Below, piece by piece: positions 10,370 through 58,990 of a DNA stretch of 64,000 bases. Each line of letters opens with the position of its first letter. Position 1 is the stretch's first letter. Source of the DNA: Cyanidioschyzon merolae. Lineage: Eukaryota. The position numbers and the translations under genes are program-made. Location of the stretch: NCBI GenBank assembly GCA_000091205.1, contig AP006502.2; one strand, written 5' to 3'. Under the pieces are notes generated by a model. It was not told the origin of the DNA, did not search any database, and saw nothing but the letters and a program-made list of their open reading frames with translations.

Positions 10370-10980
10370 TTGGAATTCCTTACGATACTGGAGTCACGAC
10401 TCCAGATGCCCTCGAACAAGCGTTCGTAAACTAATCGACATCATAATCCAGTGTATACGTACAGGCATCCAATCTTCCCATTTCGTTATATGGAGCATGC
10501 TCGGATCACACTTCGTACAAGTTTTCGATCATTCTAATTCATTGCAACTCGTCGAAATAGCAATACGAGGGAAAAAGCTCGACCTTGCCCCTTGACGACT
10601 TGTTCAGAAGCTCTCACCGGAACCTCACTAAACTGCTCACTGCAAATAACCGATTCTCCTCGAAGGGTATATGCTCATCATTTCTAGGCCATCGACGAAG
10701 TGGCGCTTGGTGGCCTCATGATACCTTTCGCATGATACGCTGCCTGGGGTTCCCGTCTCTTCGATTTGGGAGGGAAAGAGTGTTGCATTCGGACTCGGGA
10801 GATCACAGCGATCGCTTCTAGTGGAGTGCGCGCCACCGTTTTCCACGGCTGGGGCGTAGACCTATCGAAATTTCCTGGGTTGTCATCCTGCCTGAATTTT
10901 TCCTGCGTTGCTTGGTTCATCAAGGACACGATCGCATTCCACAAATCCTCTAAAGAAATGGAACAGCATGCGCTTCCAGG
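10370..10980 (+). repeat. Composite interspersed repeat, copy A (part-1 forward + part-3 reversed)
   Basis: Part-1 (10374-10600; ggaattccttacg...atcataatccag...catgctcggatcaca) matches 20597-20950, 25750-25920 and, in reverse, 31100-31300, 47100-47350, 58600-58990 and 35900-36190. Part-3 (10680-10975) is the reverse complement of 46729-47000, 30672-30930 and 58358-58600. ORFs on both strands (10083.., 10684.., 10766..) reflect DNA-level similarity, not genes. Confidence 0.8.
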
Positions 10981-13166
10981 TGCATCGAAAAGCGTCCTCG
11001 CAGCCGGCGATCGCCAAGACCAAACAGCGATCGTCGGGTACGGCACCGTGGAGTGCAGAAACGGAGTTCTGCATCAAGATGGACCTTTTCAACGCCTGTC
11101 AAGCGGCATGGATCGACCGATGAAGCAAGTGTCCTCGAAGCACAAGGTGACGCGCTTTGAGAGATGTTCGGTGGACGCATGTGAACCCCTGGCCACTCGG
11201 AAGTGTTGCCGCTGCGGGGACGCACCGATGCTGTACACAACGACGACGAATCCGGTAAGCGAAGCATGGATCGAAACATCCACATCTGCATGAGATTCAT
11301 CCATAACACCCGAGAAGGGAGAAACAGAGACTTGAATGCGGGTATCAACATTCTTGGATCGCTGGCAACCGAGCTCGACGGCCAGATACGGTCGGCGGAT
11401 GTACAGTTGGATATCAGAGAGTGGAAAAGAAGCAGTCAGACCAAAAACCCGCAATGACTAGCGCTGACGATCGTCGAAAGAGCCCAAACGGTTGTGTGTA
11501 CACCCGATTTGGAGTACCTGTCCATTGTATTCTTGACATGGGTATCAATATGATGAACGTCGATCGCGAATCAGGTATGTGGATGCCAAGGGCGCATGCG
11601 CAGACGCGCTCCGATAGGTTGCAAGCGACTTGATCTCTTCAAGGCGCAGCACGAACAACAGACGCATGATCCTTCAAACTGGCTTTGCATCTCGGAATGA
11701 GAAACTTATGGGAGCTGCTATGCGAGAGTTTGCAAGCTCGACTGTTCAAAGCCTGACCAAAGCGAATTTCGGTCTCTGGGTTTCACAGATACGACCGGTA
11801 ACTGCCAAAGACGTCGAGGCGAAAGTTTGCTTGTTTTTCGAAACGCGTTTGGCGCAACGAAAAGTATTGTGGCGCGTGACCAGCAACGGCAAGCAATTCC
11901 AGCAAAACGATGACAACCCACATGCGCGAGTGCTGACCACGCGGCTCAGTTGCGGACTAGAAACGCCTTCTTGAAACAACGTGGTTTGATCCCGCTCGTT
12001 CCTGCCTGGTGGAGAATTCCGATCCAGCAACCGAGCGCGTGCAGTGGGCACACCGAAGGACGTCGCCGACCTGGCGCCAGCATCGACTCGACGTGTCCAG
12101 TTGTCGCTAAACAGGATCATTTAGCTGGGGGCGCCTACGCACCAGTCACTGTGATGCGACCAAGACACAGCGATTGGAATACTTGGCTGTTTCTGAATTT
12201 GCGTAGAGCGTGACTTTCAAAGGGGCTGAGAAATGCAGCTGCGGACAGCACCCTGAGATCCTAAACAAGGCGCTTCCCAGAGATCTCTCAGCGCGCAGCG
12301 AACAACACGAATCTGCCAGTCGAAGCGAGAAGCGCGGATGCCGTCTGTACCTGCGCGTTGCCACAAGCCACGAGACTTTTTTGCAAGCTTCACTTGCCAC
12401 TTTCGGAGCGCATGGTGTTGGTGAGCGGTATTGTTGCAGTTTTCCGAGCGAACGGCACGTCGCCACTGTCTGCATCGCTGCAGGTTCGAAGCAATCTGGT
12501 GGATACTCGTGAGCTGCCGAAAGGTACAACCTTCCTGCATGAGTGCTCGTCAGCGTTGTTTTTTATCTTCGTTGCAATTCAATGGCATCGACGCGCGCTG
12601 TTTCCGATATATTTAATGGTAACGGCTCCGGGACGCACGTTTAACAAGTACACCAGTTCGGAGCCGCGTCTTAATCGAGAAACGCGGGTCGTTGCAAATT
12701 CCTTGCAGAGCCAGAACGACACGCAGGATGTCGCGAAGCCGTCTACGCAATTCTACCGACTCCTTGACAAGTCCAACTTCATATGGAACACGAGCACGTC
12801 AATGAGAGCGTCCATAGTCTGTCTGGTTGCCAGAGAGGTGGCCCCTGAAAGCCGGCCTTTGCCGTCTCCTGAATCAGGGACGACGCAAACAATTGCACAC
12901 CGGAAACGAAACACGCTATTCGGAAACGTGGGTTCACCACGGCAAAGCCGCGTTCAGCGTGATACGCTCGCGTGTGGTTCACCGAAAAACGCGAGGCATA
13001 CCCTCGGCGGAACAAACCGCAGGGACCCCTGCCTGCATCGTCGCGGAATTTCAAACGCTTCCGAGCATGCTGGTCTCCGACTGCTTCCTCGGGCGTTCAG
13101 CGCTGCCGATGACGACCATCATAACCAGGGTTCACGACTTGGGGCGCCAAACGGATGTGGGGATTC

Positions 13167-13727
13167 TCACGATGGTGCGGGAAATCTGTCCGAGGACTCA
13201 TCCGCGGACAGGTGCTGCTCTAAGAGCGGCAGACGTTCGTGGAGAACCATTGCAAGATCTGTATTTTCCAGGACTCGCTCTCGTGCTGCTGTCTCAAGGT
13301 GTTGCAGCACTCGTTCAAGGTCCTCAACGAGCGATTCCGTGCTTTCGAGTTCTTTCCATTCGCGCTCACTGAGCGCGCCACTTGTATGCAAATCTGCAAT
13401 GGCTTGTCTTATAGAGTCAGACGAGGGTTTCGAGGCGCGCTTTCGCCAAACTGTTTCGGACGCCTCCAGTTTCCGTTGGACCGGTGTCGCAAGTTGTTGC
13501 TCGTCGTCCGACGCTCTAGTCCTCGGTCTGCGACCTGTACTCAGCCGCTGTGCAGATACAGGTTTGGGCGGCTGCAACGCGTCACCTGGTGCTACCTGTG
13601 AATCCGTTTCTGCGATTGAGACTAGACTGGTAATCCGGGGAGTTTCTGGCGGACTTTGATTCAACTGCGGGTTCTTCGGAGAACTATTCACTAGTGAAGA
13701 GCATGAACCCACGACATGGTGGTTCAT
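13167..13727 (-). CDS. Hypothetical charged/coiled-coil-like protein (weak)
   Basis: 186-aa ORF with a protein-like charged C-terminal half (REWKELESTESLVEDLERVLQHLETAARERVLEN). It overlaps a 433-aa low-complexity ORF on the opposite strand. No homology recognised. Confidence 0.2.
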   Translation of the reverse strand: MNHHVVGSCSSLVNSSPKNPQLNQSPPETPRITSLVSIAETDSQVAPGDALQPPKPVSAQRLSTGRRPRTRASDDEQQLATPVQRKLEASETVWRKRASKPSSDSIRQAIADLHTSGALSEREWKELESTESLVEDLERVLQHLETAARERVLENTDLAMVLHERLPLLEQHLSADESSDRFPAPS

Positions 13728-15084
13728 GGCAGATCACTCTGCCAAAGAATCACTCCGAGTCCCGGCAGTTCTACAACGCCTGCTTCGAGTCCCTCTGCGT
13801 CAGCCAAGCTGACGAACGGAACCGAGCCCAGCCTGACCGAGCCGGACTCCGAAGTTGACCTCCACTCTATCGGACACACAGACTAACGTAGTTTCCTTCT
13901 CGGAGAGGCGTCTCCTGGTATATCTATTGCTGCGTTTCCAAGGTGTGCCTCGTGGGTCCGCCGCCAACCGCATCCGCCACCTGGTGCGCCGTACGAACAA
14001 GCGATCCACCGGTTCACGCACCGACGCCGACTTTAAAGCTCCGAATGAAATGTACTTCAGATTTTCCGCGAAAATCTTTGCTCTCTTGCCAGTTTTCAAC
14101 TGGAATGCGCATAATATGCGCGACCCGAACGTTGCAAACAACAGCGCTTCGACACGTGGCTAGGGCAAACGCTGCCATCGACGGTGGACGGTTGTGGCGC
14201 GCCGCCCGCCCTCGAGAGTGCGTCTACAGACGCCGACGCGCAGACGCCTCCCAGACTTGTGTCGATCGGCTGCCTGCTCTCGATTTCAGCTGCTCCTTGT
14301 ATATCTCGAGCATGAGAGGCTGATCCACAAAAAGTCGGCTTGCGACAGCTTTCCGGGCCTCGTCTTCAGGACTACACAGAATCTGGTGTTGATGACGGCA
14401 TTCAAGTCCCGGTTCGCGAACGCCATGTATTTATAGGCGCTGATGGAACTCATACAAGCAAGGAGTCCTCAAACTCGTGCCCTCTGTGTCGCTACAGTCT
14501 CGCCATTGTCGCGTCGGGCAAACTGCTTTTGTCGCATATCTCCCCTGTTCTTCTTCGTCGCTTGCTCGTCTCCGTTCGACGTTCGACGAGAAGAGGATTC
14601 TTTTTCGTTTTTTCTGGCATCTGGCGACGACGGCGCTCCAGGATCTTCGACTTTTATGTCCATACCTTTTCCTTGGAATTTGTATTTCTGTTAATGGAGA
14701 CACTGGTAGATGCCCTTTCGTGAGGATCCCCTTGGAGGGCAAGGGATTTGCGGAAGGGAAACGACATGCGCCCCAGCGGTATCGTGCTTCATGCTTCAGC
14801 GATTTTCCTAGTGGAGCGATCATCACGTTGTACGATAGAAAACACTCCTTCGATGGGTTTGAGCCACGGATCCTCTAGAGGTTTGAAAAGAAGCTCTACC
14901 CCGATATAATCTCAAAAACCGCGAACGCAAGGGGAATGCTGGAATGCCGCGTTATCCAATAGAAGAACGTCGCGAGATGTCAGGGAAAACTTCTTCAATG
15001 ATTCGATGAAGTCTCTGGTTTACTGTGATCCTTGTCTGGGAGCGATACTGAGGCCGCCAAACGAATCCACTACAGCTAGAACAT

Positions 15085-15654
15085 ATGATGATGTCGTCGC
15101 TCTCTTCGGGCTCGGTCGTACGTACAACAGTTCGCTGCTCCGCGAATACCCATATAGGCTCCGGCGGTTCCGTCCGAAGCAAGTCCTATCGACTGAGAAA
15201 ACAAGCCGGTGTCCCTGTGCTTCACATCGATTGCAATGTTCAACGAATTCTATCGTTGCGATTTCGGTGGAAGGTGGCGCTCAATGAACTAGGAATTTCA
15301 AGGGACTGTATCTCAGAAATTTCAGGACCAAACGAAAAACTGCTGAGTACCAGACACACGCGTGGCAGCTTCCATCATCGCCCTTACTTTCCCTCGATTG
15401 ATCAACGGGTCGTTTTTCTACCAGTGACCGCAAGCAGTCCAAAAAATATGGCTCTCTGGCACTGTGCGCATATACTTGATTCGAGGATTGTTCCTGAGTT
15501 ATCTGAGTACTGCGTTTTGACCGACATGAAGGAAAAATACAGTCCTCCTTGCACTGTTCAGAAAAGAAAATATACTAAAGGCAATTCATCTATGATCCAT
15601 ACGGTACATTGCATCGTGATGTCAATCTCCTGCTATAGACCCCAACGGAGATGA
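15085..15654 (+). repeat. Repeat family 2, copy 2 (forward)
   Basis: See the 2520..3101 entry. MMMSSLSSGSVVRTTVRCSANTHIGSGGSVRSKSYRLRKQAGVPVLH matches the minus-strand MLMSSLSSSSIAHKTGSFPTNTHIGSGRIIRWNDRRLRKQTVVPVLH; also shared are FPSIDQRVVF/FPDNDQRVVL and KGNSSMIHTVHCIVMS/QGNSSAIHTVHGIVCS. Confidence 0.8.
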
Positions 15655-17226
15655 AGCAAAACTGAGCTCAAAGCCTCTAAGCCGGACGGTGTCGACAGAT
15701 GCGCTTCGATTCATGGGCGTGCCTGCGACGGACACGGTGACGATGAGGTACTCTGGGAATAGTCGATCCATGCAACTCCATAGAGAAGGCGAGTTTCGAT
15801 CTCACTGTTCACATAGTGTGTCTGAGTCGCAAGGAACAAACCGCTATGAAATATGGTAAACACATGCTTGCAACGAGTCCAAATCAAGGAGCAGGCGAAA
15901 AAGGAGCTAGTCTCTGCATGCAAGTATGAAACATGCGAGCCAAAGCCTAAAGAGCGTTGGCGGAGCTCGTTCCAGGTTTGTAGGTTATGAAGCAAACATT
16001 GAAACAAGTCTACAAGGACGATAGGGACCGACGGAACACCAATCTGTGCGCATATTCGTAAACCTCGGCCAGCGCCGAGCACCGACACGCATGTTCAACT
16101 GTGCCAGGTGGATGACGAGAAAGACTTTATGGTGGGTGCGGATCCCTGCTTTGAGGACGTTATGGTCGTCGCCGTACCTCTACATCAAGAGAATGGAGCC
16201 AAAGTCTTGAGCGCAATGCAAATGTACCTGCTCAGATTCTACAGGGATAGGTATCAATGGGAGGCGGGCATCATGGACGCCAGGAGGCATACCGACAAGT
16301 GCAATGACAACGTCGGAATCCATGACGGCGATCTGCGCACCGTATCGAGCAGAAGTGGATATTTTCTGTACGCTTCACTCAGAACGCGTACCTGGGCGTC
16401 GAAATGGCACAGGCACACGATCTATGGCAGGGGCACGTGAGACGGCGCTGGGGTCGCCAACGATGTCTATTGCGCAGAGGCAAGCAGCGTGCATTTACCA
16501 ACCTATCTCATGCGTTCGCAAAAGAAACCGGGGATACATTGCGTCGCGTGGCGGTAGTCTACGGTGTCGGACGTGTCGTATCCCGCAAAGCATGCACGCG
16601 TATTCCGTCGCGGGCCTGCAACGCGTGCTGGAATCGATTCTGTACGATTCGCGTTAAAGTCTCGAGAACAACACGCTCGCATCACGAGCACGGAAACACG
16701 CGGAAACGGTAAGTGATTTGAAAATTAAAACAGAGTCCGGTACAGGAGGTGGTGTACTGTAAGGAGACCAAACTCCAGATGGCGCGGCAAACAAGGGTAA
16801 GAGGCTTGCTATGGTATGATTCCACCATCAACAATGCGAAGAATCACTTTTTGCGACCAGAATTGAACGCCTTGATTAGCATACGAAAGGATGCCGCACT
16901 TGCGGAACGTCCACCGGCTTTGTTTCGAGCGAACGTTCGATGTCGTCCTTCAGCAGTCAGCGTGGGCATTATGCTGCAACGCTGCAGACTTTCGATGCAC
17001 GGAACCAGCGGCGAGGATATAGAAATTGGAACTCTCACCGCAAACAACGCTCTGGTGTCGAACAGCACAGCAACAACGTTTGTGCTTCGTGTACGCATAC
17101 GCACTGGAAACGATACTCCAAGGCAATCAGAGCACGATAATGACGCCCCAAGATTCGATATCAAAGAGTATCGCTTGCGCACAGCTCAGCGTCACGACAT
17201 CCAATCGTGAACATATCTGCAGAAGC

Positions 17227-18570: not shown

Positions 18571-19185
18571 ACCAGCATTAACGGGTGTGCGCGGGCGGCG
18601 CGTTTGAGCGTACGCATGCTTGCAGCGTAAAGGCGCTGGGGCACGGGATTGTAGCGTTGATGCAGATCCAACTTGTTACGCGAGTGCTGACTGTAACCTG
18701 GAAAGTGTTCAGCTACGGTGGAGCTGCCCTGCACTGATGCAACACCGGCAGTAGGCGAAGCATTTGCAGTATTTCGGGATACACCGTGCCTCTGTTTCGT
18801 GGACTGCTCATGCGATGAACGTCAATCGTCTAGCGCATGTTCGAGGAACTTCGTTTTGGAAGCAGAACAAACCCCCGTTCTTGCGTGTCCTCGACAGCTA
18901 CCTCATTCTGAGAGGTTGCTCTGGCTGCAGCGAACACTGCCGTGGTGCAACACGTACCAGTGCTGAGCGGCACCTTGGCCGGTCGGTGACAGCTGGCGCT
19001 CATGGACCGCCGAGAGGAGTTCGCTGCCACAGGCACTGGATCTCAATCGTTTCGATCGCTGGGAGCTGTCGAGAGCCCCATGCATCGTAGTGCGTTCTAT
19101 GCGTTGTAATCTGCGATTTACACCAAAAAACAGCAAGTCCAAAGTCATCGATCCTTGCGGATATGTGCAGCGCTTTTCGTAGTGC

Positions 19186-20106: not shown

Positions 20107-20596
20107 GCTTCAGAGTTATAAAAAATTGGCTTAGAATTATTGCCGAGAAACTTCAGTAGCCCAGTAGCGTCTTTCGCGGCAGCCCCGAGGCGTCTCGAAA
20201 CCTCTACTCCCAAATGAAGCACGCTGGTACATAGGACGAACGCGCATGCGTGCGCCGCTTCAGAGGTGACATCTCGATACCGTCCGTTAAGTTCTAAAAG
20301 TTACAGAAAAATACATGTTCATGGAGAATGCCGCTCGAGAGGACGACGTCGGATGCCAGCGAGAGTTCCGAGGAGACAGAGCGACGCGTTCGTGCGCCTC
20401 GCCTGGATATGCAGCGTTTCACATTGGTACTGCCTCGCCGAGCGGGTGACCTGTGATCGAGCAGGAGAGCTCATTGACGCTGCATTCGTGTCAGGCGAGA
20501 ATGCGACACTGGACTGCTCGTTCTGTAAACGCGTTGAGGTTTTTGCGTACGTTTTAGGTGGACAAGCCTTTGGCTTCGAAATGTAGCAATAAGGGT

Positions 20597-21150
20597 TTAC
20601 GAATTCATACGCTTGTTCGGGGTTTTCAGTCCTCGTTTTGGTAGCGGGTCCTTCGATACTTTGCTGCTCGATTTCATGAGGTCAATGGAATCAAGATGTT
20701 TCACGACGTATTTGGACATGGGTTTGTGAAACAATCGATATCATGATCCAGCTCATACGAAAAAGGCTGTAATCTTCTCGTTTCCTTTCACGAAGCATGC
20801 TCATATCATGGTTCTTCAATTTTTCAAGCCTTCCGTTCCAAAACATCTCGTGGACCAAGCAAATAGCGCTTCTAGATTGATGAGCAAAGAATTCGACGTG
20901 GTTCCATAAAGCCATCCTCACGAGCTCATACCAAAAAATGACTGAACGCGTCAGATCGAATCATCGTTTCTGTTCGAAATACAAATGCTTCTTCCTTGTT
21001 GCTATCGAGAAATCAGAAATCGACTGCAACGCGATACATCTCTTGGGAGATACAATGACAGGCTCCTGTTTCTCCTTTTTGCATACATGATAGTCTTGGG
21101 CTCGGACTTGAGCCATCGCTGCGATCGCCTCCGGTGATGCGAGCGTCACC
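20597..21150 (+). repeat. Composite interspersed repeat, copy B (forward; part-3 possibly extends to ~21300)
   Basis: 20690-20930 aligns with 10440-10590 (atcatgatccagctcatacg...catgctcatatcatgg vs atcataatccagtgtatacg...catgctcggatcacac). Minus-strand ORF 20961..21149 (SPEAIAAMAQVRAQDYHVCKKEKQ) matches the part-3 end seen at 46900-46960 (APLEAIVAMARVRAQHPILCKRKRR). Confidence 0.75.
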
Positions 21151-23029
21151 CATTCGCAGGATGGCAGCGTAGAAGAATCGAGATTTCTCTACTTGATAGC
21201 CAATATGAGTATTCCTTACAGTGCTCGTTTCATCATGGACAACTACGCGTTCCGCAACTCCTCCATCGAATAGAACGGCGCGAGCTTGCGTGTACAGCGG
21301 GCACAGTATTCGCCAACTGGATCACCTGGACATAGCTCGTGATCGTTGGATACGGCGCTGCCGGCATTAACGGAAAAGGGCAACGAACGGGGCCTCCTCT
21401 ACCCGTCAAAGGAATGCACTGTGCAATGAATGACGCCGTCCGTCGCCGCGGGACAGCAGCCGAAAGAGGAAGTGTGTTGGACATATGGGAACGCCTGATG
21501 ACAGTCACGTGTCACCGCTGCGAAATGCGCACCGGTTTTGTACACAAAGGCAACGAAAACGACACACAGAGCGTAGATCGCAACTCCCGCCTGTGCACGA
21601 CACGCTTTGACAAGGAAAACGGAGACGACGGAATCGGCAGTTTAACATAGTCAGCAACATCCTTCTACTGCTGATATCGGAGATGCAAGGACGGTCGAGA
21701 CCGGCGTATTCAAAGCCGGACATAAGCGAGATATAAAGGATGCAGTCGAAGAAACAGCCCGCAAAGTCTGCTGGTGATGATTTCAGAAACAGACTCAAAT
21801 TTCGGCGAGACGCCGACTCCTACGAGACCTGCTCCATTGTATTCGGGCGTGGATAGAACCGGATGGTGGCATTGCCATGACGCGTCATCGGCAAACCCGA
21901 ATGATGTACTTCGGAGTCCGAAGGGTCCCTTCAGAGCTCATGCGACACGCTTCGCTGTTTATCTATATCCAGTGCCGAGAGCGTTTCAGGACTGAAGGAA
22001 TTCTGGAGTCGTGCACGCTTCAGCACGAGTTCGTTGCTCGCGAAAATGTCTTAACGCTCCAGGCTATATACAGCTTACCACGCAATTCCATGGGGCGCAC
22101 GGATTGTACCACAGGAAACATTCGTGCTCGCTGCCTCTGTGAGCGAGCACCGGAAACTTTCCAGCATTGTGTATGCAGCGCTTGATATGCGAGGTTGCTA
22201 GCTATCACCAAGAGACCATATGTTTCCTGGTACTCTATTCAAGCAAAAAACTGACCACAAACGTCGACAAGGGAAACTTGAACTTGGGACTGCTCAGAGA
22301 GACTCGCTGCATTCCTAACCCTGGATCGACGCTCGCATCCCAAATTTGTCTCCAATACATGCGACCACGCTACACGAAAACCAGGTGTCCACGTCGATAT
22401 TTTGACATTTTTGTAGCGCAGGCTCCTGGTGCACAACAACACATCGCCAGGCTGGCGAGAGCTCTCACGGGTGAGGCCCTCGGGAGCGACGCGGATCCAT
22501 GGCTGGTAGCTACCGGCACCTGGACAAATCGTATGGAACGACAAAAGCATCCCCAGAAACGGATATCCATCGTGCAATACAGGATTTCCGGTTCAGGGTA
22601 ATGACCCTGTACCATAACGGATAAAAAAGAGATGCCCTCAGGCAGGAGAAACGCTGCATGACTCGTACGCCAGGAGCGAAGCGTCCAGGGACAGCGGCAG
22701 TCGCGATGCTGGCGAACGAGGGCCTCGCGTGCCGACACGCCGGCCAGCCGCATCGCGCCCAGTGCCGCAAACGGGCCGCTTTCCTTCACAGGCGGCGGCG
22801 TTTCTAACTCCAGGGCTTTCATTGAAGGCTTTTACAGTCAGTTGGTGAGCGAGGCCTGCGACCCAGCACAGCACGGGCGTCTTTCACGCTGTAGACGACT
22901 CCTGAGTACTAGATCCCACTGGAGAACGCTGCCCTAGAACGAAGCTTGGATATTAACACGACTTGCACGAGTTTCGTTTGAGGGTAGGTTCGTGGTGGCG
23001 TCCAGTGCCAAGGAAACGCTTCCTCCGCG

Positions 23030-25372: not shown

Positions 25373-25689
25373 GTGTGTTTGGATTCCTGCATGGCTTTAT
25401 GAATGCGTTCGGTGTGCGTGTTGGTGTGTGCCATGTTCCAGCATCAGCTATTGGAACAAGGCAGCGTCCGACTCGCTGGTGTCGTCGATCCTGTGGTGTC
25501 CTTGGGTGCCGCGACTCTTACTGCCGGCAGATGGCGCACGCGTGCTCCACTTGTGTGTCAGATAAAAATGGGATACGCGAGTCCTCGCTCCCTTCCTGTT
25601 TCAGCGTTTTTCCACAGAAGCTTTTTAGATAGATAGCCTCGACGTTGCAAGTGCAGTCAAAAGCGCTAACGAATTCGTTCATAGTTTCA

Positions 25690-26400
25690 GGATGCTCAGA
25701 AGCGCGCTTTCCGAAATGGCTCCGTCGACGCTTTGTAGCGGGAAATTGTTCCCTCATTCGCATCAGGGTGATTTGCGACGCCCTCGGACAAACTTGTGTA
25801 AAACAACCGATATCATCATCGAATTCTTGTGCACGAACTTGTATTCTTCTTCGTCTACCGCGAGTAGTATACTCAAATCACTGATACTTCACGTCTTCGA
25901 TCTTTCTGTTGACATGTAACTCGCGGGTGCAGCAACGTGCGCAGCCGGATTGACGACGAAGAAACACGACGTCATCGTTTGATAACTTCTTCACAAGCGC
26001 ATACCACCTATGCGTTCACTGAACTTGCCACGTCAAATACTCTATTTCGTCCGGGAGAAAAATCAACCTCTCTCATAGTGGTCATCGATTCGTCTGCTTT
26101 CGACGGCCGTTCGATACCCCTCGCGGGATATGCTTCCAGTGGCTCCTGTTTCTTCTGTTTCCATGAAAAAAGGTCTCGCACCTGGACCCGAGTCATCGCA
26201 GCGACGGCTTTTTTAGAGCGTGCATGACTGCTTTGCGTCGAGAGAGCGAAGACAGATCCATTTTTCTCGACCTGTTCTCCGACTTGGATTTCGCTTCTGT
26301 TACTTGTTTCATGGTGAACAGCATTGTGCTTATTGGAACCTCTGTCGAAAAAGGCAGCGTGTGCTTGCGTATGCGCCCGATACAATACGCACCACGGGAA
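25690..26400 (+). repeat. Composite interspersed repeat, copy C (forward)
   Basis: Part-1 at ~25750-25920 (TTDIIIEFLCTNLYSSSSTASSILKSLILHVFD vs LIDIIIQCIRTGIQSSHFVIWSMLGSHFVQVFD in copy A). Middle tgaacttgccacgtcaaata at ~26020. Part-3 reversed at 26008-26385 (VHHETSNRSEIQVGEQVEK vs VHHETSAGGNIHAGEQVEF at 46780). Confidence 0.75.
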
Positions 26401-27295
26401 TCGCCCAGAAGAAGCCCCTGATCGTATAATGTTGAGGCGTGTGCGGAGACGGAGGAATGCATCACCACGAGCCTGTTGTACTCGTTATGTACCGAAGGAT
26501 GAAGCGTGTCTCCATATGGCACAGGGCGGCGCTCTGGGAAGCGGTTCTCGCCGACCCATGAGAACAGCCAAGTGTTGCAGCTGAGACGGTCGCACCGAGT
26601 CTATCGGCAAAACAAGATGAAAATGGTAAGCAATGCGAAGAGCGTAGCTTTTGGCTGTGCTTGACATGCGTCGACTGGAATACGAAGTGGCGAGCTGGTC
26701 ACTTGAACACTACACTGAGCATGCTTGTACTCATGAAAACAGTGCTGGAGGCAAAGGAGAAACTGGTGTATTGTACGCCGGATTTACGAGAGGAAAAGCA
26801 TGCAGTCAATGAAATAGTAAGCAATATCTGGTGTTGATAACTGGAGTAAGAGACCCCAAATCTAGCGTTTACATTCGAGATAGCCGGACGCATCCTTCTC
26901 GTTTCATTCTGGCACGGTTGTAGCAGCGAAAGATGCATGGAAAAGGGTACCTGGCTGTACGACGAGCGCGTTGTATACGACCTCTGCCTGACAGCCTGCC
27001 GGACTGGACACGAGAACGGTTCGCGTTGTGCAAGTCGTACCATGCCCTGCTGTGCTGAGGTCGTCGACCCGCACGGTGTCGCATTCGTTCGGAAACCAGA
27101 TGATTCTTATCTTAACTGAGCGCTTTTTAGGTTTTATCCCGTTGGGATTACGCCGGTTCATCTGCGGGGCCTACCGCTTTCCCTGCGAGCATGTTCCGCA
27201 GCGATGACACTTCTGGCTGGTACTGGAAACTGCGTGGTGTCTCGTAGTCGTCCAAGACGGAGTAACGCGGCACTGATCCCGTTACAGACCCAGCG

Positions 27296-27330
27296 TTGCC
27301 GTGTCGTGCCGTGCCGTGCTGTGCCGTGCC
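27296..27330. repeat. Pentanucleotide microsatellite (CCGTG)n, ~6 units with one variant
   Basis: gtcgtgccgtgccgtgctgtgccgtgcc read directly. Confidence 0.8.
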
Positions 27331-27643: not shown

Positions 27644-29605
27644 TTAGCGTCCATGTCGTGGGCGTTTCACCAGTGCCGCAGATGTTCCTGTTTTCTGCTC
27701 TTGAAGTTGTCGCGCAACGAGCTCGTCATACAGCCGCTGCTTCCTCCGACTGAGCAGCATTCGCTGTCGATGACGCTGCTCTGCGAGCTTCTTCTCCACG
27801 GCAATGGGTGTCGTGCCCGCATGTTTCGATTTGGTATACTCAGGAACATCACCATCATCATCGGAATCGGAATCGGCGGCGTCCAGCGTCGCCTCGTGGT
27901 CACTATCGACAGCATCAAGGGGTCTCTGGGACGCTGCAATCTCGGGATTCGTCTGGAGATGATTGGTATGCGAGTCAGACCCGGAAGCCACAGATGCTTG
28001 TGGCTCTTCAAGCCATGCTAATTCTTTGGGTAAAGGAACGCTGGTGGCGCCGGTCTTCACGCGCTCCAAATAGAGGCGATATGCGGGGCGCTGCACTTCG
28101 GCACTGCTCGCTGCATCCGTATGCTGGAGTCGCTGGCGTGTCTCCTCCTCGAGTTCGGACTCCCACGGGCTCAGATGCGGTGGCAAGCGACGCCCAACGC
28201 GATATAACCATGTTGGTAAACGAAACGCTTCATTGATCGAATCGAATACCCATTGAGGTTGGATATACTCCCGATCCAAGCGTCTGCTGGGCAGCATTTC
28301 GAGTGGACGATCAGCAATCACATAGTGAATACGATCGTCATCAATAGTCAGCGGCGATGTTGACGTGCATGGACTCTCATAGCCAACGGCTTCGGCGCCG
28401 CAGGCGTAGAGTACCATTTCCAAGATGTGAACGGGTGTCTCACGATGTACGTAAAAGTAGAGACCCCGGAAGAGATTCGCTAGCGTATCCCTTGAATGAT
28501 CGGTTTGGGCAAGGCCGTCCACGAGTGAAGGCGGCGGAGCAGTTGTCTCGGGAGAATGCGTCCCCTGGTTGGAGACCGTTTCCAGCGCCTCTTCATCGAC
28601 ATCGGTGCCGTTTTGTACTTGCTGCGACGCTGCTGCTCCTGTGCCCGTTCCCGCGCTTGCCAGTCGCAGAGCGCCTGTGCTGTCGTGCATGTTCGAATCC
28701 GTGGAGTCCCTGTTCGAGCGCGAAACCGAAAGCGGTACATCGATGCAATTTGACTCTGGAATAGGCCCTAACTGCGCCAATGTGCGAACTTCCATCATTT
28801 CGCGGAGAAGCGCCCCGCGCGACTCTGCGTTGCGATCGACGCGCGGCGGGTACTCGACCCCTAAGACCCGACGATAGAGTCGAAGCAGCACAAAGTGGAG
28901 CAGTGCCTCATGGAACTCGAGGAACGTGCTCATAACTTTCAAGTCGACCGAAGGCGGCACATACTGAACAAAACGATGCGGCTGCGACCAAAGTATCCGT
29001 ACACCCTCTATTTGAGCTTCGAAATAGAAACCTCTGACACTCGCAAATAGGCGGCGCAGGTGACCTGGTCGCAGCATCAGAAACAGCTGCCATTCTCTGG
29101 CTAACCGCGCACAATTTTCCAGTCGTGCCGGGGGGAAAAGCCCCCGACTGACACCGCGTCGCCCATCGCCCGGTCGAGATATTTCGGCGAACGTGTGCAC
29201 CATCGTTAGCGCATCATCAAGCTCAGCAAGCGCATCCGTAAACGATGGATAGCGTTCGCGTATTAGATGCTCGAGCGAATAAACCGGTGACGATCTGGCC
29301 GCCAGAGCCGCCTGGGAGAACTCGCCACGCGCCAGCGCTCGCCGGTAGCGGCGTCGGAAGGCGGCCAACTCACGGAACTTGTTGATTAAAGGCTCGTGCG
29401 CAAGGAACTGGATATCCTTCTTCAAATAGTATGTCCGCCGCGGCCCCTCGAACTTGTTCCGAGGATCTCGTGGGAATTTGCCCTTTAGGATGCAGAGTCG
29501 GCGAAAGTCGCTGAGCGAGAGCTGCAGCATTCGCAGTGCTTTCGCTCTGGTAACATAGGTGGCAGCGGCCCCGCTTGTGCCTTTTTTATTCCGCTCTGCG
29601 ACCAT
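27644..29605 (-). CDS. Pescadillo homologue (PES1/Nop7; ribosome biogenesis, BRCT domain)
   Basis: From Met at 29605: [52 protein letters not shown]...[39 protein letters not shown] matches the Pescadillo N-terminal domain ([51 protein letters not shown]). The ORF remains open 59 codons further upstream to 29782. Confidence 0.9.
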   Translation of the reverse strand: [653 protein letters not shown]

Positions 29606-30659
29606 GGTTGCCGTTTCGCTCGCCGAGATCAGCTGGGACGCTCGCACGGTAAGCGAATCAGGGCCTACCCGGTTCCGTCGAATCTGCTGGAGCGCGTGGT
29701 ACCCGGCTTCGTTGTGGCTCAGTGGACCCCGCACCGCCGAAAAGGTATACACCACTGACAACTCCCGTGAGCGCAGCCACAAAAATTAGATGAGGATGTC
29801 GAAGCACAAACGGTTTGTAGCGCGGAGTCACCCGGATAACCGTGGAAACACTCGGCACGACGGGTTCAGTTGCTCCAGCACGCTCTTGACGACGACGCAA
29901 GCGGGCCCAGCGCGGACGCGGCATAGCGTCGAAGAAGTACCGACGCGATGCGCATGGGTCTTGCATACGAACTGTCCTTATCGGCCAGGTGCGTCTATAA
30001 ATGTACATATTGTACAAGATGAGCCAAACCGGTTCATGCTGCGCGGGCTATCTCGACTGAATCGCCCGAGCTGCTTCATCGAACAGTAGCTTGCAAGTTT
30101 TGCTGTCATTGTTAGAACCGTGTCAGCGTGGAAGTGGACGCATCAGCTTGGCCAACTCGAACGGTCACGCGACTGCTTGGCCAATTTCCTACGCTCAGCA
30201 GCACTAGATTTTTTGGACTTTTTTCCTGCCATGACATCCTTGTCTTGTCTCTGATCCCGGGCTTTTAACCTTCCGCCGGTCTCTTCTATCAATCCAGCTC
30301 CGCTGTCAATAGTCGAAGGATGCTGATGGTAGCGTTCAAGCTCAGATCTGGGTGCTTCCGGCTTTTGCCTACGCCTTTCAGGTCCGGACAGAAGTTACGA
30401 ACTACGTTTCGCTTGCCATTTTCACCTTCGTAGCATACAGGCCGGATACGCCTTCTCCAGTGGTGCCACTTGGCCGAGGTCAGGTATTGCCATATGTCTA
30501 CCAGAACGCTTCGTCCTCCGAGCGCTGCCCCGTGGCACGTGGATGCATGCTTCATGGCCACGTACGCGACCTCGGCGGATTCAGAAGCTTCCGCTCGATG
30601 CGCTGCTCCCTTGCCCCGCCTGATGCGGTACCAGACGACAGCAGGTTTCCTCAGAGCGA

Positions 30660-31300
30660 CTTGCTGAGCGAGTGCTCAGTTTGGTGCACGCGCAAACGCA
30701 TGCTATTGCATTGGACGGTGGATTTACGGAACAGGATATTGGCCATGATGAAACAGGTATCGGAACGAACATCAACGCTGGGGAACAAGTCGAGAAACTT
30801 CGATGCCCCTGCACTCGCTTCACATCAATCGGTGACGTAGTCTCCACGGGACTTGATCGCTGCGATGCCCCAAGCCCGAGTCCGAGGTCCCTTGTTCCAT
30901 GCAAACAGAAGAGACGGTAGCCTCTGGGCGCGTATCCCCTGAGAGGCCGTAAGCACGTGTCGAGCGCCGTTTTGCCGATGGTAAGCATGATCGGATGATT
31001 TGTCTCTCAAGCGGAATACATTATTTGACGTGGCAAGTTCAGTCATTTTTTTATGATCTATTCATCACGTCCTCAATGAACGACGTCGATCTTTCTTTTT
31101 CTTCAATCCCGAGGCACGAGTCGCTGCGCCTGCAACTTGCCTTGAAACAGAAGGATTCAACAGTTGAAGCATGTGTGATTAGAGATGCTGCACGGAAAGA
31201 AGCTGGAAGAATTTATGCTCATGCGAATGATTTGGATCATGATATCGGCTAGTTTACGAATCCTCGTTCAACAGCGCGGCGAATGGCCCTGATGCCGGTG
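30660..31300 (-). repeat. Composite interspersed repeat, copy D (reverse orientation: part-3 forward then part-1 reversed)
   Basis: 30672-30930 aligns with 46729-46960 (GHDETGIGTNINAGEQVEKL; ...catgcaaacagaagagacggtagcc). Middle attatttgacgtggcaagttcagtc at ~31010-31035. Part-1 reversed at ~31100-31300 (atcatgatccaaatcattcgcatgagcataaattcttcc read on the minus strand). Confidence 0.75.
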
Positions 31301-31583
31301 ACGTAACGAACTCCATCGGAAAACGAGTCAAATGAAGCACTTTGAAACTGGCTTCCGAGAACTCCAAAGCTACGTACGAACCCCTAAGCACTGCTAGCTG
31401 CACTCTGTATCCCGAACCAGTGCATGTAGGAAAGTTCAGAATAATAGCCATGCAGGTATAGAGCGAGCAGCTCATTGATCGATCTCGATCTGCCAGCGGT
31501 GTGGCGTGTCAGTACGCCGCGGTCGCCCTGCGGGATAAAACAACGGCCAGAGCGACATCAGCCGCAGTTCTTACCAGCTACGG

Positions 31584-35309: not shown

Positions 35310-36190
35310 CAATGGATAACGGTAGCAGAGACGCACCTGGGACATCCACATCGGAATTCCAGAATGCAACGTACCGCGGGGACGTTCTTACCGGATTCCG
35401 CTCAAGTCAGCAAGTATCCAGAGAGATCCAAGAATGCATGCGAAAGAGGCACATGTGCGGAGATCACCACATTTCCGGTTTCCTAGCACTCCTTTGTACC
35501 TTGCGGGTGCAAGAGAATCCATCATGAAGCACTCGATCCGCAGACCAGTGGGTAAAGTGCGACCGCTCACGCGTACGGTATGCAAAAAAAGGCTGCGTAG
35601 GGATTCTAAAGCGTAGCGGGATCCAGAGCCTTTAGGAACAATGCGAGGCGGCCGGCATCCAGACGTGCAGTTGCTATCGAAACCTGTCAAGGCGTTTAGC
35701 CAGATTTGGTCTCGTCCCTGTGGTTCAAACAGGTTGCTTCGTGGGCAGGAGCTCCGGGCATCCGACCAAAGGCGACCGAATCGATCCGAATGCAACTTTG
35801 TCATATTTATGGATTTTTTCACCACAAAAATGAATCGTTCGTGAGGACTTGGAGCGAGCGCCCCGAATACGCGCTCAATGGATGCGTAGGCACCGCGGCG
35901 ATCGAAGAAGATATACGGGTCATGGAACTTGAACGTAGCGTGTAGCATGATAGACGCGTTCCCCGAAATCCGACGATCCATCCAGCAGTCCGGTATCGAT
36001 AGCCAGTAGAAACGCTCTGTCCAACATAATCGACCGTCTCTCAGTATCTTCTTGGCGAAGTATGGGTCATGGAACTTGAACGTAGCGTGTAGCATGATAG
36101 ACGCGTTCTCCGAAATCCGACGATCCATCCAGCAGTCCGGTATCGATAGCCAGTAGAAACGCTCTGTCCAGTAAAAAAGTAATCGGAGCG
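35310..36190 (-). repeat. Composite interspersed repeat, copy G (reverse orientation, diverged, with internal 148-bp tandem duplication at 35918-36172)
   Basis: A 107-bp block ggtcatggaacttgaacgtagcgtgtagcatgatagacgcgttc...ccagtagaaacgctctgtcc occurs at 35918-36025 and 36066-36172 (period 148 bp). Its reverse complement (catgctacacgctacgttcaagttccatgac) matches part-1 of copy A (catgctcggatcacacttcgtacaagtt). 35310-35460 weakly matches part-3 (ccaatggataacgg...; atgcatgcgaaagaggcac vs atgcaaacagaagagacgg). Confidence 0.6.
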
Positions 36191-41510: not shown

Positions 41511-42000
41511 TTGATCGTGCTTTTGATAGATGGAATAAAGCAGAGCTGGTCAAGAAACCAGCCAGCCTTACGAAGTGAGCACCAGGCGCCAATATTCGTT
41601 GAAGCCACTCCCGGTACCCGTTGCGGCAAAAATGGGACGCTGCCGTTACGCTCCGCTGCGATGTTCTCTCCGATGACAAAACGTTTCCATTGACCGTCGG
41701 TTGCAGACTCCGAGATCGGTACTGGCTTGTGGGAAAGTGTCCACTATGACGCACTCCACCTCCAGGTTCCATTAAGTGTACTTCCTTTCGCATGGACTCG
41801 TTGTATTATACCTTCTATGGTCGGCCGAGCGCATGCCTTGCCGCATCCGCATTAGCGCCTAGACCGTTGGGGCGGATGCATCCCGGAGACAGCACGGCTT
41901 TGCCGTACCACTGAGGGCGTCAAGTCCAGGTGCGCTGGACTCGACACGGGATCAGAGTACGTAAGCTTTCTAGGAGTCAGCCGTATATGCTCTGGAAGAC

Positions 42001-45816: not shown

Positions 45817-46719
45817 GGTTCAAGAGCAATGCGTTGCACTGCAGCGAATGCGGGAACAGCTCGGCACAAGGTACGCACCTGCATGTCCTCGGCGACTTGA
45901 GTGGCACTCGGAAACGATACCTGGCAGGCGGCGAGCGTGCTTTGTACTGTGCGGGTTCACGGCAAGATCATATGCAGGTGCACGCATATGAACACTCGAA
46001 TGTTTTTTTGGTGGGATCTGTCTACCAGTGTGTTTATCATGCGCCAAAAACGGCTCATTTCTATGAAAGCGCGTGTCGATTCCGCGGTATCGTTGACGCG
46101 GTGTAACTTTCAAGAAAAATACCGCAGAAAGCATGACTATGCGGCACAAGCGTCCGTTACGCCCATGTCAGGATAAAATGAATGGGTCCACTCGATTGAT
46201 TCGGGCTTGCATTCTGAAATCTGGGTCGCGTCCCACTGGCATCGATACCAGCCTTGGCGGGGGTTCTGCGATTGTTTCGTTATCCTCTCCCTCGTGTCCG
46301 ACCTGAAAAACGCTGGTCACTCCTTCCCCTCTGTTTCCGTTGTCGACAGTATAAGGATGCTATCGGCAGCGCTCAAGCCCTGACTTTGATGCTTGCGGCT
46401 AATGTCAACGCTTTCCATGCATAGGCGATACTTGCAATCGATACCGCGCTTGCCAGTTCCGTCTTCTTTGTATGCAGCGTCGCTGTGCGCCCCTCGCACC
46501 AGTGACACGTGCCTGTGGTCAGATGCTGCCAACTGTTCACCACCACAGCTGCCACTCCGATCGCTGCCTCGTGACGCGTGAACGCTCGGTTCATCGCTCC
46601 CCACGTGGCCTTGACGGCAACAGGAGGCTCGCCTCGATCCCATCCTCGTTTGCCGACCCTGGGGTCGCGTTCTACGTTCACGGGCGCCTGCCGCGCGATG
46701 TTCTGTTCGAGAACGCTGC

Positions 46720-47350
46720 TCGCTACGCTTGAAAGCGCTCGCCGTTCCATTCGATAGAGGATTGGTGGAACGCGATATTGTCCATCACGAAACGAGTGCA
46801 GGAGGGAATATCCACGCTGGAGAGCAAGTCGAGTTCCTCAGGTCCATCTACGCCCGTTTCGTGCAAGACGCTGGCGTACGCTCCACTGGAAGCGATCGTT
46901 GCGATGGCTCGAGTGCGAGCCCAGCACCCGATTCTATGCAAACGGAAGAGACGGCATCCTGTGGAAGCGCACGCCCTGGGAGGTATTTTGCGTCAGTCAT
47001 GTGCCGGCTCGGCGGCGGCGGCGGCCACAAAGCAGAGGCAGACCTGTCTTTCAATCGGAGTCGATGATTTGGACACCATCAAATCGGTACAACTTTGTGC
47101 ATGAGCTTCTGTATGGTCGCCAAGGGACGACATGGAGTTTTTTATTTCGTCGTCGTCGTCGTCGTCGTCGTCAATCCAGCGGCGCGAGTTGCTGCACCCA
47201 CGAGTTGTCGTGAAACAGACAATATCGAAAAAGAGACGCATGCGTGATAAGCGCGTCCAACATGTCAGGAGCGGAGTATCACGCAGGCTTGTGCATATGA
47301 ACCTGATCATGGTATCGGTTGATTTTGGGAATCACTGATCGGAACGCGTC
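46720..47350 (-). repeat. Composite interspersed repeat, copy E (reverse orientation), with an internal (GTC)n microsatellite at 47148-47180
   Basis: Part-3 forward at 46729-47000 (ccattcgatagaggattggtggaacgcgatattgtccatcacgaaacg...tgcaaacggaagagacggcatcc). Part-1 reversed at ~47100-47350 (revcomp of ctgatcatggtatcggttgattttgggaatcac resembles caatcgatatcatgatccag of copy B). cgtcgtcgtcgtcgtcgtcgtcgtc read directly. Confidence 0.75.
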
Positions 47351-48607
47351 GCACACCATCGCGAGTCTCCGGGTACGTAACGAACGCCAGCGGCACAGCG
47401 TCAACGGGGGCACTTCGAAAAAGCAACCGGGCATCCTATCACGTACTATACATGCTTGGCCGTTTATTCCGGCAATCTGATTGTCGAGGCTGTACATCGA
47501 ATGCATCTAGGAAAAATTCGCAAGACAGACGCTGAGCGAGCAATACAATATCCGATTTTAAGCTGATACAGGTGTTTTCTCTGAACGCCCCACACGTTGC
47601 GGCCGGCGACAGTCTCGCGCTTGTCGCTCTGAGGACTCGCGATGCACGAGCTCGCAGGAACGTGCACCAGTGAGGTTAGTGAGCAAGAAACAACCTCCTG
47701 TGATCCTTTCATAAGAGGACAAATGCAGACCTTGACAGGGCGGCCCAGATACATTCGGGACTCTTCAGATCATGGACGTGGCCTTTGTGCCAATGACGCG
47801 CCCGACGGCCGCTCCAGTTCATGCAGAATCGAGGAAGGTGGACCCCCACAGAGATGCCATCAGTGACACACAAAAGTTATCCCACGAACATGGAGAGTAA
47901 ACACGTAGTCTCACTCACAGACCTCTCCCAGCATTTTTTGACAGGCCGTCTGCTATCGGCTGTAGCTTCTCTTTGTACACTTCGAGGCTGAGAGGCTACT
48001 TCACAAAGGTGGTTCGCGTCAGCACCACGTATCGTATGGAATTGATGGCGGCTACGAAGTCTCGGTTCACGAACTTCTTGTATTTATTGTATCTGCTTGA
48101 ACTCACCAATGCAAGGATTGCTAGAACACGTGCCCTCCGTACCACACCAGTCTCGTCATCATCCCGTGGGGCAAACACCTCTTCCCGCCTATCCCGCCTC
48201 TTCTTCTTCTTCCTCCTCGCTCTATCAAAGACCAGAAGAGGATTTTGCTCTTTCGTTTCTCTCCGGCACCCGATGACACCGGGAACTCCAGGATTCCCAA
48301 GTTACATCTCCATAACTTTCTCTTAGATTATGTATTTCTTCAAACGGACGCATTTCGAAAGCATCTTCCATACACCGCGAAATCGCATGATGAGACACGC
48401 ACCTGGTGATGGAACACCATTGGGATGAAATACTACAATCAGACTAATATGGACAATTTATGAAAGCATTTTGCCGCAGTCGCCGCCGGCACGTCCCACG
48501 CGAATCCCCGGGTTGACCTCGGGGGTCCATGGCAACAGCCTCCAAACGACAGCGAGCTTGCATGTCTCTTTTTCCGTAAGTTTCACACCAACCGCAGGCC
48601 GCTGATC

Positions 48608-52291: not shown

Positions 52292-52322
<31 letters not shown>

Positions 52323-57453: not shown

Positions 57454-58349
57454 AAGCGATCATCTCGGTGCCGGTTGTTTACGGATGTAGAATTCGGAGA
57501 GAGCGCGAGGAGCTCAGCGTTAACCGCGATTCTGGATAGCTCTCGAAGCTACGCATCTCACAAAGAGTTTTCCGTGGAAGTAAACCGACGGTTGCGAGTT
57601 TCCCAGTAAGAAATGGTGCTTGGAACAGTCGACTCGTTCGCAGGGCACGCTGGCGGTGAAGCGTATCTGAACGTTGCGACCGATTAGCCGCAATGTTATA
57701 TCGTAAAAGACTGAAACGGAAACCGAGTGGCGAATGCGAACTCCGACAGGTAGCTCTCGAATGCGTATGTTTGTATATCCAGTTCAGAATAAAACGGAAT
57801 GGGTCTCTGTATCGGATCGGTATGTACATGCTAAAATTGTGGTCGCTTCTCCGTGCTATCAGCACCAGACGTTGAGAGGTTTCTCTCTGGCTGCTCCATT
57901 GTCTTTTGCCTCCTGTATCCGGCTTTCAATCCGACTGTCTCTCCTGCGCCTCCATTTTCGGTTTCATCCGTCGAAGGTTGTCGATGGTGGTGTTCAAGTC
58001 CTGATTCCGCAGCTTTAGGCTCCTGTCAGGCATTTGATGCACAGGCGCAAGTTGCGATCGTTGCTTCACTTCCCGTGCTCATCTTGTTTATACGCAGCGT
58101 CTTTAAGCCCTTCGCACCGCTTTCATGATTATTCTCAGGCGCCCTGCATGTATCCAGAACTTTAACTCATCAGGGATGCTGCGCGGTGGAGCGTGAACAC
58201 ACGCCACTTCGCTCAGTGCATGCCCTTGACGGGAGCGGATGATACCGTGGAATTCCTTTGCTCGGTTTCGGCGCCTGGAGCCTTCGACTTCCAAAACGCA
58301 CTTTTTCTGAACGCTTTCCTGAACGAGTACTGAATCCGCTGGACAAGCA

Positions 58350-58990
58350 AGTCCAAGATGTTCCATTCGATCGTGGATTTCCGGAGCGCAATGCTTCCCA
58401 GGATGACTCAGGAGCCAGAGAGACCGTTGAGGCTGCAATACATGTCGAGAAACGCCGACCCGTCTAGGCTCCCTTCATGCACAGCGGTGACGCATGCCGC
58501 AGTCGAAGCTATCGCTGTGATAACGCAAGCCCGATTCCAAGACCCTTTCTCCCGTGCAATCAGAAGAGACGGGTCCCTTTGGTACCATATCGAATGAGAG
58601 GTACCATGCCGATTTGGAATTCGGTTTCACCAGTTGCCATACGGGAGACGTGGATTCGTCTGTGGAACGGGGCATCGATTATTTGACGTGACAAGCACAG
58701 TGAACACCCGGCATGCGCTTGTGAACAAGTCATCACGGGCGGCGTGGCGTATGTTTCCTCGTGCATCCACTGGAGAGCATTGCTGCGCCCATGAGCTTCC
58801 TTGAAACAGAGAGATCCAAATCTTGAAGCAAGCGAGATTTCAGTACGCGACACATAACGAATGGAGAAGCGTGGAGATTTGTCCATATGCGTTGGATTCT
58901 GATAACGCATATTTTACGAAAGCTTGTTCGTAGGCGAGATGGATCATCCAGGTTGCTGTATTCTAACGAATTCCGGGTAAGGGAATCCAG
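58350..58990 (-). repeat. Composite interspersed repeat, copy F (reverse orientation)
   Basis: Part-3 forward at 58358-58600 (ccattcgatcgtggatttccggagcgcaatg...; AAVEAIAVITQARFQDPFSRAIRR; ...tgcaatcagaagagacgggtccc). Middle gattatttgacgtgacaagcacag at ~58680. The reverse complement of 58930-58975 (ggaattcgttagaatacagcaacctggatgatccatctc) matches the part-1 start in copy A (ggaattccttacgatactgg...). Confidence 0.75.

Follow-up and report, generated by a model that had tools for sequence, protein, structure and literature searches.

What is the repeat that recurs between the genes of a 64,000-nucleotide stretch of the genome of the red alga Cyanidioschyzon merolae (contig AP006502.2, assembly GCA_000091205.1; the whole stretch is called the window here)? 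The window is gene-dense: long open reading frames (ORFs) alternate between the strands, and their Pfam domains are those of ordinary housekeeping proteins. Its intronless ORFs for ATP sulfurylase and PRPP synthetase are identical to proteins of C. merolae strain 10D (BAM83124 and BAM83125, respectively). The original prediction, made from the bare sequence, had described a composite, non-coding repeat of about 0.65 kb at seven sites, and had proposed a non-autonomous dispersed element that might be a short interspersed nuclear element (SINE), a miniature inverted-repeat transposable element (MITE) or unclassified. The repeat itself and its designation as non-autonomous and dispersed are borne out by our analysis, but its class, size, ends and origin are different. 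The family is very probably a non-autonomous derivative of a mariner–Fanzor1 DNA transposon, formed by internal deletion and since decayed between genes. It is a known kind of element and an ordinary genomic fossil, of an apparently undescribed family; a literature search, with Repbase and Dfam outside its reach, found no paper describing a 1.39-kb family of this kind.

Comparison of the window with itself by blastn supported six of the seven proposed sites, designated A to F (E-values down to 1e-20), with A–C on the forward strand and D–F on the reverse strand, so that the repeat does occur in both orientations. Site G (35310–36190), taken for a diverged member, has no similarity to A–F and belongs to a different repeat. 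Once flanking sequence was added, similarity among the six copies was collinear over approximately 1.35–1.4 kb and reached well beyond the coordinates first given; the true unit is approximately 1.37–1.43 kb, and the intervals of 0.55–0.7 kb represent its central part only. Alignments were collinear throughout, with no sign of the inversion of the third part relative to the first that had been described, and no internal inverted repeats beyond chance were found inside single copies. Identity, previously put at 70–85%, is 54–59% over the full length, with the best local segments at 64–70% and one 88-bp stretch at 77%. A profile search of the window with nhmmer returned exactly six full-length copies and zero fragments, the match envelopes being 10173–11546(+), 20470–21857(+), 25537–26922(+), 30113–31514(−), 46158–47587(−) and 57774–59153(−). 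All six genuine copies lie between ORFs, and stops are present in every frame of every copy, both as anticipated.

Pfam searches with the individual degenerate copies gave nothing, and only a consensus produced matches. The consensus was built from ten full or near-full copies, the six in the window and four from metagenome contigs that represent different loci in C. merolae-like strains. The decay of the copies is neutral and star-like (see below), and the majority consensus therefore approximates the founder. This alignment, a check already suggested for the repeat, defines termini with terminal inverted repeats (TIRs) and reveals two decayed genes. The additional metagenome copies were named H, I, J and K, the last being truncated at its 5' end; one more metagenome locus has two tandem copies. 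Ten of the eleven distinct copies are full length, K being the exception. On a C. merolae-like contig, two full-length copies in the same orientation lie 1.27 kb apart (L017 2563–3937 and 5206–6601; also in L018 and L025).

The 3' half of the consensus encodes the C-terminal part of a Fanzor1 protein. It scores 27.5–29.2 bits against Pfam PF07282 (Cas12f1-like TNB, formerly OrfB_Zn_ribbon; cut-off 26.3). A consensus of seven copies was already above this threshold, with the TnpB/Fanzor signature 'TTVKCHRC…CMKC…NRDLNAAINIL', and the [TS][TS]-x-x-C4 zinc finger followed by the RD motif of RuvC-III is found as 'EHLTTVKCHRCE…RLCMKC…RNRDLNAAINIL'. In a profile database search, the forward frame picked up fragmentary ORFs belonging to further copies, together with P0132 and P0133, two homologues that are genuinely coding; with the reverse mirror frame (alignment A1), the search found only two ORFs, and a PDB sequence search with the profile gave no matches. 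P0133 is 45% identical to the 3'-half consensus (E = 3e-34) and 53% identical to its ten-copy version, to which P0132 is 60% identical. Going from seven to ten copies left the Fanzor consensus fully open and nearer to both proteins. The 3'-half consensus is also 40–48% identical to intact ORFs of 650–800 amino acids in the metagenome loci L019–L029, and identity of the Fanzor part to intact homologues is 41–60% overall. The element is thus coding in origin, not non-coding as had been supposed: 1.2 kb of the 1.39 kb is recognisable coding remnant, and the ORFs dismissed as artefacts of the repeat include decayed remnants of two real genes. A simply non-coding reading had been entertained while six-frame tblastn scores were similar in several frames on both strands, and was dropped when the consensus resolved the coding origin. 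For annotation, ORFs called inside copies of the 1.39-kb element are pseudogene debris.

The extent of the Fanzor similarity bears upon whether the element could be a complete, compact nuclease of TnpB size (approximately 430 amino acids with its own N-terminal domain, of the IS1341 type) and no deletion chimera at all. A length of 1.4 kb is typical of TnpB-only insertion sequences, and the seven-copy consensus looked almost open in one frame across the unit. However, hhalign and BLASTP find similarity to Fanzor proteins in no more than their last ~150–185 residues, from about residue 507. The RuvC-I region ('G-x-D-P-G', the homologue of 'GLDPGR') is absent, and the 261 codons of the 5' half correspond over their full length to an IS630/mariner transposase and match DDE_3. 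We give a complete TnpB-like gene almost no chance. A model with a single ORF of ~430 amino acids and a frameshift was dropped after the hhalign result and the transposase match. With the complete RuvC fold missing, the copies are fragments of Fanzor and not Fanzor genes. The IS1341 group of IS200/IS605 (TnpB-only) resembles the element in its length of ~1.4 kb and in the C-terminal domain PF07282 of the TnpB family, but its members have no TIRs and a complete TnpB, unlike the TIR-bounded element with its DDE transposase remnant and the C-terminal part of Fanzor1 only.

The identity of the 5' half was revealed by intact relatives. An exact-pattern scan for more copies was judged inefficient, with each site holding at 0.74, and a protein-pattern scan of metagenomes was used instead. 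This yielded 25 loci, some with degenerate copies and others with the intact ORFs of 650–800 amino acids, which carry the Fanzor1 motifs 'IETDGVG', 'GLDPGR', 'GYGTGRGNGGGH' and 'RNRDFNAAINIL'; the intact ORF of L020 can be aligned over the RuvC core with CMe-1, the Fanzor1 protein published for C. merolae (E = 7e-13). A scan of IMG/VR viral contigs found no relatives. In L026 and L027, a complete IS630/Tc1-mariner transposase of 326 amino acids (HTH_33 plus DDE_3) lies directly upstream of the Fanzor1 gene. The 5'-half consensus frame (261 amino acids) is 36% identical to the L026 transposase (E = 8e-52) and scores 34.1 bits against Pfam DDE_3 (cut-off 28.6). Its alignment runs from residue 1 to about 235–255 and includes the first two catalytic motifs, seen as 'AIDETA' and 'IMDNIAFHK'; the region of the third (E) of the DDE triad is deleted. 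Residues 1–120 align with the helix-turn-helix (HTH) region of the L026 and L029 transposases, and Pfam matches of the consensus to HTH_Tnp_Tc3_2, HTH_32 and HTH_33 are below threshold (E 0.01–0.02). The layout, TIR – transposase (1–~235) – Δ – Fanzor1 (C-terminal ~185 amino acids) – TIR, is that of a classical internal-deletion, non-autonomous derivative.

Single copies in the window match both proteins, transposase and then Fanzor, with order and strand as expected. The deletion junction can be read directly in copy E, where tblastn matches transposase residues 146–229 at 47010–46759 and then directly Fanzor residues 507–597 at 46762–46478, which places the junction at about 46760. The TIRs, ruled out by the original prediction, were recovered from the consensus: the left end (ACCCGTGTCAGATGAAAATGGGAC) and the reverse complement of the right end (ACCCATGTCAGAATAAAATGGAAC) match at 20 of 24 positions. 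The TIR motif is present at three predicted copy termini, against 0.07 expected by chance. The consensus ends resemble those of the intact L026/L027 element, which are sharply defined by two independent insertions.

These ends also bear on two other proposals for how the copies arose. A SINE does not fit, for neither end has an A-rich tail (the lack of poly-A had been noted correctly) and the features are those of class II (cut-and-paste) DNA transposons, though no search aimed at pol III A/B boxes was made. Alternatively, an intergenic segment could have been multiplied by segmental duplication or by gene conversion, or the copies could be SINE-like retroposons; one segmental duplication of recent date that takes in copy E is indeed present in other strains (E–NT5C–E', 98% identical). 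Against this, the copies share the same sharp ends and TIRs with unrelated flanks, in both orientations and at unlinked loci; they contain DDE transposase remnants, lack a poly-A tail, and only K among the eleven is truncated. The probability of such an origin is close to negligible.

The element is best compared with mariner/IS630-type transposons that carry Fanzor1, such as PUl-1, PGv-1 and SPu-1, the last with TIRs and a TA duplication (Bao and Jurka, 2013; PMC3627910). Like these it is a TIR-bounded class II element with a DDE_3 transposase with HTH N-terminus upstream of a same-strand Fanzor1, a layout found exactly in L026/L027. Unlike intact mariner–Fanzor1 transposons, the window copies lack the C-terminal third of the transposase and the N-terminal ~70% of Fanzor, and all are pseudogenised; unlike the SPu-1 type, they show no demonstrable TA target-site duplication. 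Deletion derivatives of Tc1/mariner elements and MITEs (Stowaway-like) are similar in that ends are kept, the interior is deleted and copies lie near genes; a need for transposase in trans and amplification in a burst would also be shared. MITEs are short (<~800 bp) and have no coding capacity, whereas this element is 1.39 kb with long coding remnants of a recognisable transposase and Fanzor, and the proposed MITE class is therefore not appropriate. De novo MITE searches have reported zero MITEs in C. merolae (PMC3964958).

We propose the following history, in which the order of events is inferred. The parent would have been an IS630/Tc1-mariner-type element of roughly 3.5–4 kb with inverted repeats of ~25–29 bp, encoding a DDE transposase and then, on the same strand, Fanzor1, a TnpB-like RNA-guided nuclease. 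Through a single internal deletion, the transposase would have come to stop at residue ~235, immediately past its second catalytic Asp motif 'MDNIAFHK', and to run directly into the last ~185 residues of Fanzor1, a change keeping RuvC-II, the zinc finger and RuvC-III and removing the third-carboxylate region of the transposase and the RuvC-I region of Fanzor. The resulting 1.39-kb element would have been mobile only with transposase supplied in trans. Its amplification, probably in a single burst within the C. merolae lineage, would have followed the split from the compact sister lineage, with insertion, or survival, only between genes. The copies have since decayed neutrally to about 74% identity with the founder.

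Several points weigh against this interpretation. Similarity to the transposase is weak past 'AFHK', and the exact junction is uncertain by ~10 codons. At the ends of the copies, 'TA' follows the right end in 7 of 10, but the left-end dinucleotide is CG, TG or CA in 6 of 9 and never TA; at L026 and L027 the insertions could be read as C-TA…TA-T, which does not prove a TA duplication. C. merolae sequence itself yielded no full-length parent, and the intact relatives come from metagenome contigs. Finally, the consensus is built on ten copies, and the C. merolae-type sequence sampled, from which genome-wide copy number is extrapolated, amounts to ~180 kb.

The positions of the parts of each copy were mapped through the ten-copy alignment, and each copy corresponds to a full-length nhmmer match. 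Copy A (10184–11546, +) has a left TIR at 10184–10210, a transposase remnant at 10263–10945, a Fanzor1 C-terminal remnant at 10954–11494 and a right TIR at 11520–11546; by tblastn it is matched directly by the intact transposase (10263–10568 and 10688–10954) and by intact Fanzor1 (11233–11508). Copy B (20481–21857, +) consists of a left TIR (20481–20507), transposase remnant (20559–21258), Fanzor remnant (21267–21805) and right TIR (21831–21857), with tblastn matches to intact Fanzor1 at 21264–21524 (E=1.7e-11) and 21620–21829. The corresponding parts of copy C (25548–26922, +) are at 25548–25574 (TIR motif at 25553–25571), 25629–26337, 26346–26865 and 26896–26922; this copy is flanked by the 3' ends of the TDO gene (ending at 25372) and the pescadillo gene (ending at 27644). 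On the reverse strand, copy D (30113–31503, −) lies between the divergent pescadillo and PAP2 genes, with its left TIR at 31477–31503, transposase remnant at 30723–31425, Fanzor remnant at 30170–30714 (intact Fanzor1 matching at 30463–30699 by tblastn) and right TIR at 30113–30139. Copy E (46158–47576, −) has its left TIR at 47550–47576, transposase remnant at 46762–47497, Fanzor remnant at 46214–46753 and right TIR at 46158–46183 (motif at 46163–46181). In copy F (57775–59142, −) these are at 59116–59142, 58378–59064, 57831–58369 and 57775–57800 (motif at 57779–57797), and the copy lies between the convergent PP-loop gene (ending at 57453) and glyoxalase II gene (ending at 59468). Pfam-supported genes flanking the copies include those for GST-like, TDO, pescadillo, PAP2, PRPP synthetase, PP-loop and glyoxalase II proteins.

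The left end of copy E (~47565–47587) is the exact site of a structural polymorphism between strains. In strains 99.4% identical (L001 1157–3944, L002 1–1113, L004 1–881), copy E is followed by an NT5C gene, and in L001 a second copy of E, at 98% identity, lies beyond NT5C (E–NT5C–E'). In 10D, copy E is followed by a CMe-1-like fragment and the RNase PH gene. This arrangement suggests duplication or deletion by recombination between copies.

The differences among copies were used to determine how the family has evolved. The phylogeny of the copies is star-like, with all pairwise identities between 0.54 and 0.59; taken as a star, these values correspond to an identity of ~0.74 between each copy and the founder. 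Where six copies agree at a column, the seventh has the same base with a frequency of 0.74, equal to the average identity to the ancestor, which indicates that there is no site-specific constraint, and no 3-base periodicity was found in the differences between copies. Between strains ~99.4% identical, the element shows 1.0–1.1% substitutions per site, against 0.6–0.9% for the remaining non-coding DNA and 0.22% for genes, making the 1.39-kb element the fastest-evolving class of sequence. Indels are rare in the lineage (2–7 per 90–98 substitutions, a ratio of about 1:15–45), and this accounts for the near gap-free alignment of the family with no need for constraint.

Evidence on age also came from a syntenic contig of the sister lineage (L007), which keeps the order ATP sulfurylase–CNNM–PAP2–pescadillo–TDO–GST–AKR (pescadillo at 59% amino acid identity). 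At the junctions corresponding to copies B, C and D, no sign of the element is seen in the contig, and the genes lie closer together, with a spacer of 599 bp as compared to 2,272 bp at site C. These observations agree with reported intergenic growth by repeat expansion, repeats making up 12.7% of Cyanidioschyzon and 0.59% of Cyanidiococcus (PMC9812998). The data fit one old burst followed by neutral decay. The same comparison revealed that in the sister lineage the ubiquitin hydrolase gene (window 5059–6224; L007 20747–21906) has the opposite orientation with respect to the remainder of the syntenic block, and that ~9 kb between the ubiquitin hydrolase and AKR genes, including copy A and material of a second repeat family, is present only in C. 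merolae.

A potential alternative to neutral decay is that the copies are functional non-coding elements under selection, such as long non-coding RNA genes, shared promoter/terminator modules or genes for ωRNA. The copies are uniform in length and have few indels; every copy is intergenic, and copy D fills most of a divergent promoter region. In characterised Fanzor loci, ωRNAs are encoded in the 3' part, the part retained here. However, rates are not heterogeneous among sites, the element evolves faster than any other class between strains, and the low indel count matches the general indel-to-substitution ratio of the lineage. Rfam and tRNA scans of the window found nothing, the 3' 232 nt of the consensus folds no better than shuffled sequence (z = -0.63), and the sister lineage has no element at the same gene junctions. 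We consider selected function highly unlikely, and no present function of the copies is indicated. A related possibility concerns past spread: the 3' Fanzor part and right end might have been kept because they encode the ωRNA, with the element spread or kept through ωRNA-guided cleavage by Fanzor1 acting in trans. We regard this as unlikely; if true, the element would be a eukaryotic counterpart of ωRNA-only hitch-hikers, and the large burst would be explained. Beside this proposal may be set a similar architecture in an unrelated, AT-rich organism: the metagenome contig L013 carries the end of a DDE_3 transposase at 2–193 and then, at 438–1088, the ATG-initiated ORF of P0132 (216 amino acids), which holds only the Fanzor1 C-terminal region, its start corresponding approximately to that of the Fanzor part in the C. 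merolae element.

Fanzor1-related repeats have been described previously in C. merolae. Nozaki et al. (2007) counted 253 copies of a 3.2-kb repeat whose truncated ORF has weak similarity to WSV486 of white spot syndrome virus (WSSV); Bao and Jurka (2013; PMC3627910) reported the Fanzor1 element CMe-1A (3169 bp, about 150 copies, no TIRs) and also listed a WSSV Fanzor1. The two repeats appear to be the same. That copies A–F simply belong to this published 'WSV486-like' repeat, a ~3.2-kb Fanzor1 element of about 150–253 copies, has a very small probability. Both derive from Fanzor1-bearing elements, and the 3' half of our consensus shows a remote similarity to CMe-1 at the protein level (24% identity over 150 amino acids, E = 2.4e-4). 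However, the 3169-bp CMe-1A consensus, taken from the supplement of Bao and Jurka (2013), matches none of A–F by blastn (word size 9, E ≤ 1e-3). The sizes differ (1.39 kb versus 3.2 kb), and the DDE transposase 5' half is absent from CMe-1A. In L005, a true CMe-1A copy (83–88% identity) adjoins copy H, and the two are clearly distinct. CMe-1A/TE-N2_CMe (the 'WSV' repeat; Nozaki 2007, Mikulski 2017) thus shares with the 1.39-kb element its genome, interspersed distribution, degeneracy and Fanzor1 derivation, and is present in the window as separate fragments, but has no DNA similarity to it and only that 24% amino acid identity in the Fanzor C-terminus. CMe-1A copies are ~80% identical to their own consensus, as compared to ~74% for the 1.39-kb element. 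As a deletion derivative of a mariner–Fanzor1 transposon, the 1.39-kb family shows that a second, older Fanzor1-bearing lineage, separate from CMe-1A, invaded C. merolae. The intact mariner–Fanzor1 relatives in metagenomes are candidates for study as RNA-guided nucleases.

The 1.39-kb family makes up 13% of the window. Six copies in 64 kb, together with two extra in ~52 kb of other C. merolae-type sequence, correspond to ~1 per 14.5 kb, where the two extra copies are those that were not the reason their locus was fetched. By crude extrapolation, the genome would contain ~1,100 copies (Poisson range about 490–2,250), or 4–19% of its sequence. C. merolae has been cited as the simplest free-living eukaryotic genome, with a reported 0.7% transposons, about 5% 'WSV' repeat and no MITEs. 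At the extrapolated abundance the family would explain a good share of the repeat expansion that doubled intergenic length relative to Cyanidiococcus (PMC9812998). Rudenko and Korotkov (2024) have claimed dispersed repeats of 600 bp or less for 72% of the genome; these could not be mapped onto the 1.39-kb family.

Other repeats are present in the window. The CMe-1A consensus matches by blastn at 2532–3855, 14167–15636, 47897–48435, 41671–41921 and 36057–36168. The last of these lies in site G, which in the self-comparison matched nothing except its own 110-nt direct repeat (35914–36023 and 36061–36170), the units being 98% identical to each other and ~78% identical to nucleotides 5–113 of CMe-1A/TE-N2_CMe. 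The match at 41671–41921 is a solo, TE-N2_CMe-like fragment that shares 80% identity with the initial 247 nt of CMe-1A. The second repeat family comprises 2532–3855 (+), 14167–15636 (−) and 47897–48435 (−), the first two copies being 72% identical. It has a DDE_3 remnant (14783–15127, 51% identical in amino acids to an L005 ORF) and then a Fanzor C-terminus with 67–72% DNA identity to CMe-1A, and looks like another mariner–Fanzor deletion derivative. At 15958–16964 (+) there is a diverged Fanzor1 pseudogene, which tblastn aligns with CMe-1 residues 357–706 at 31–37% identity (115 bits). Two further features are a tandem array of a 42-bp unit at 7954–8260, immediately upstream of the ubiquitin hydrolase ORF and with central copies 98–99% identical, and a 57-nt near-perfect palindrome at 61860–61916 with 88% self-complementarity.

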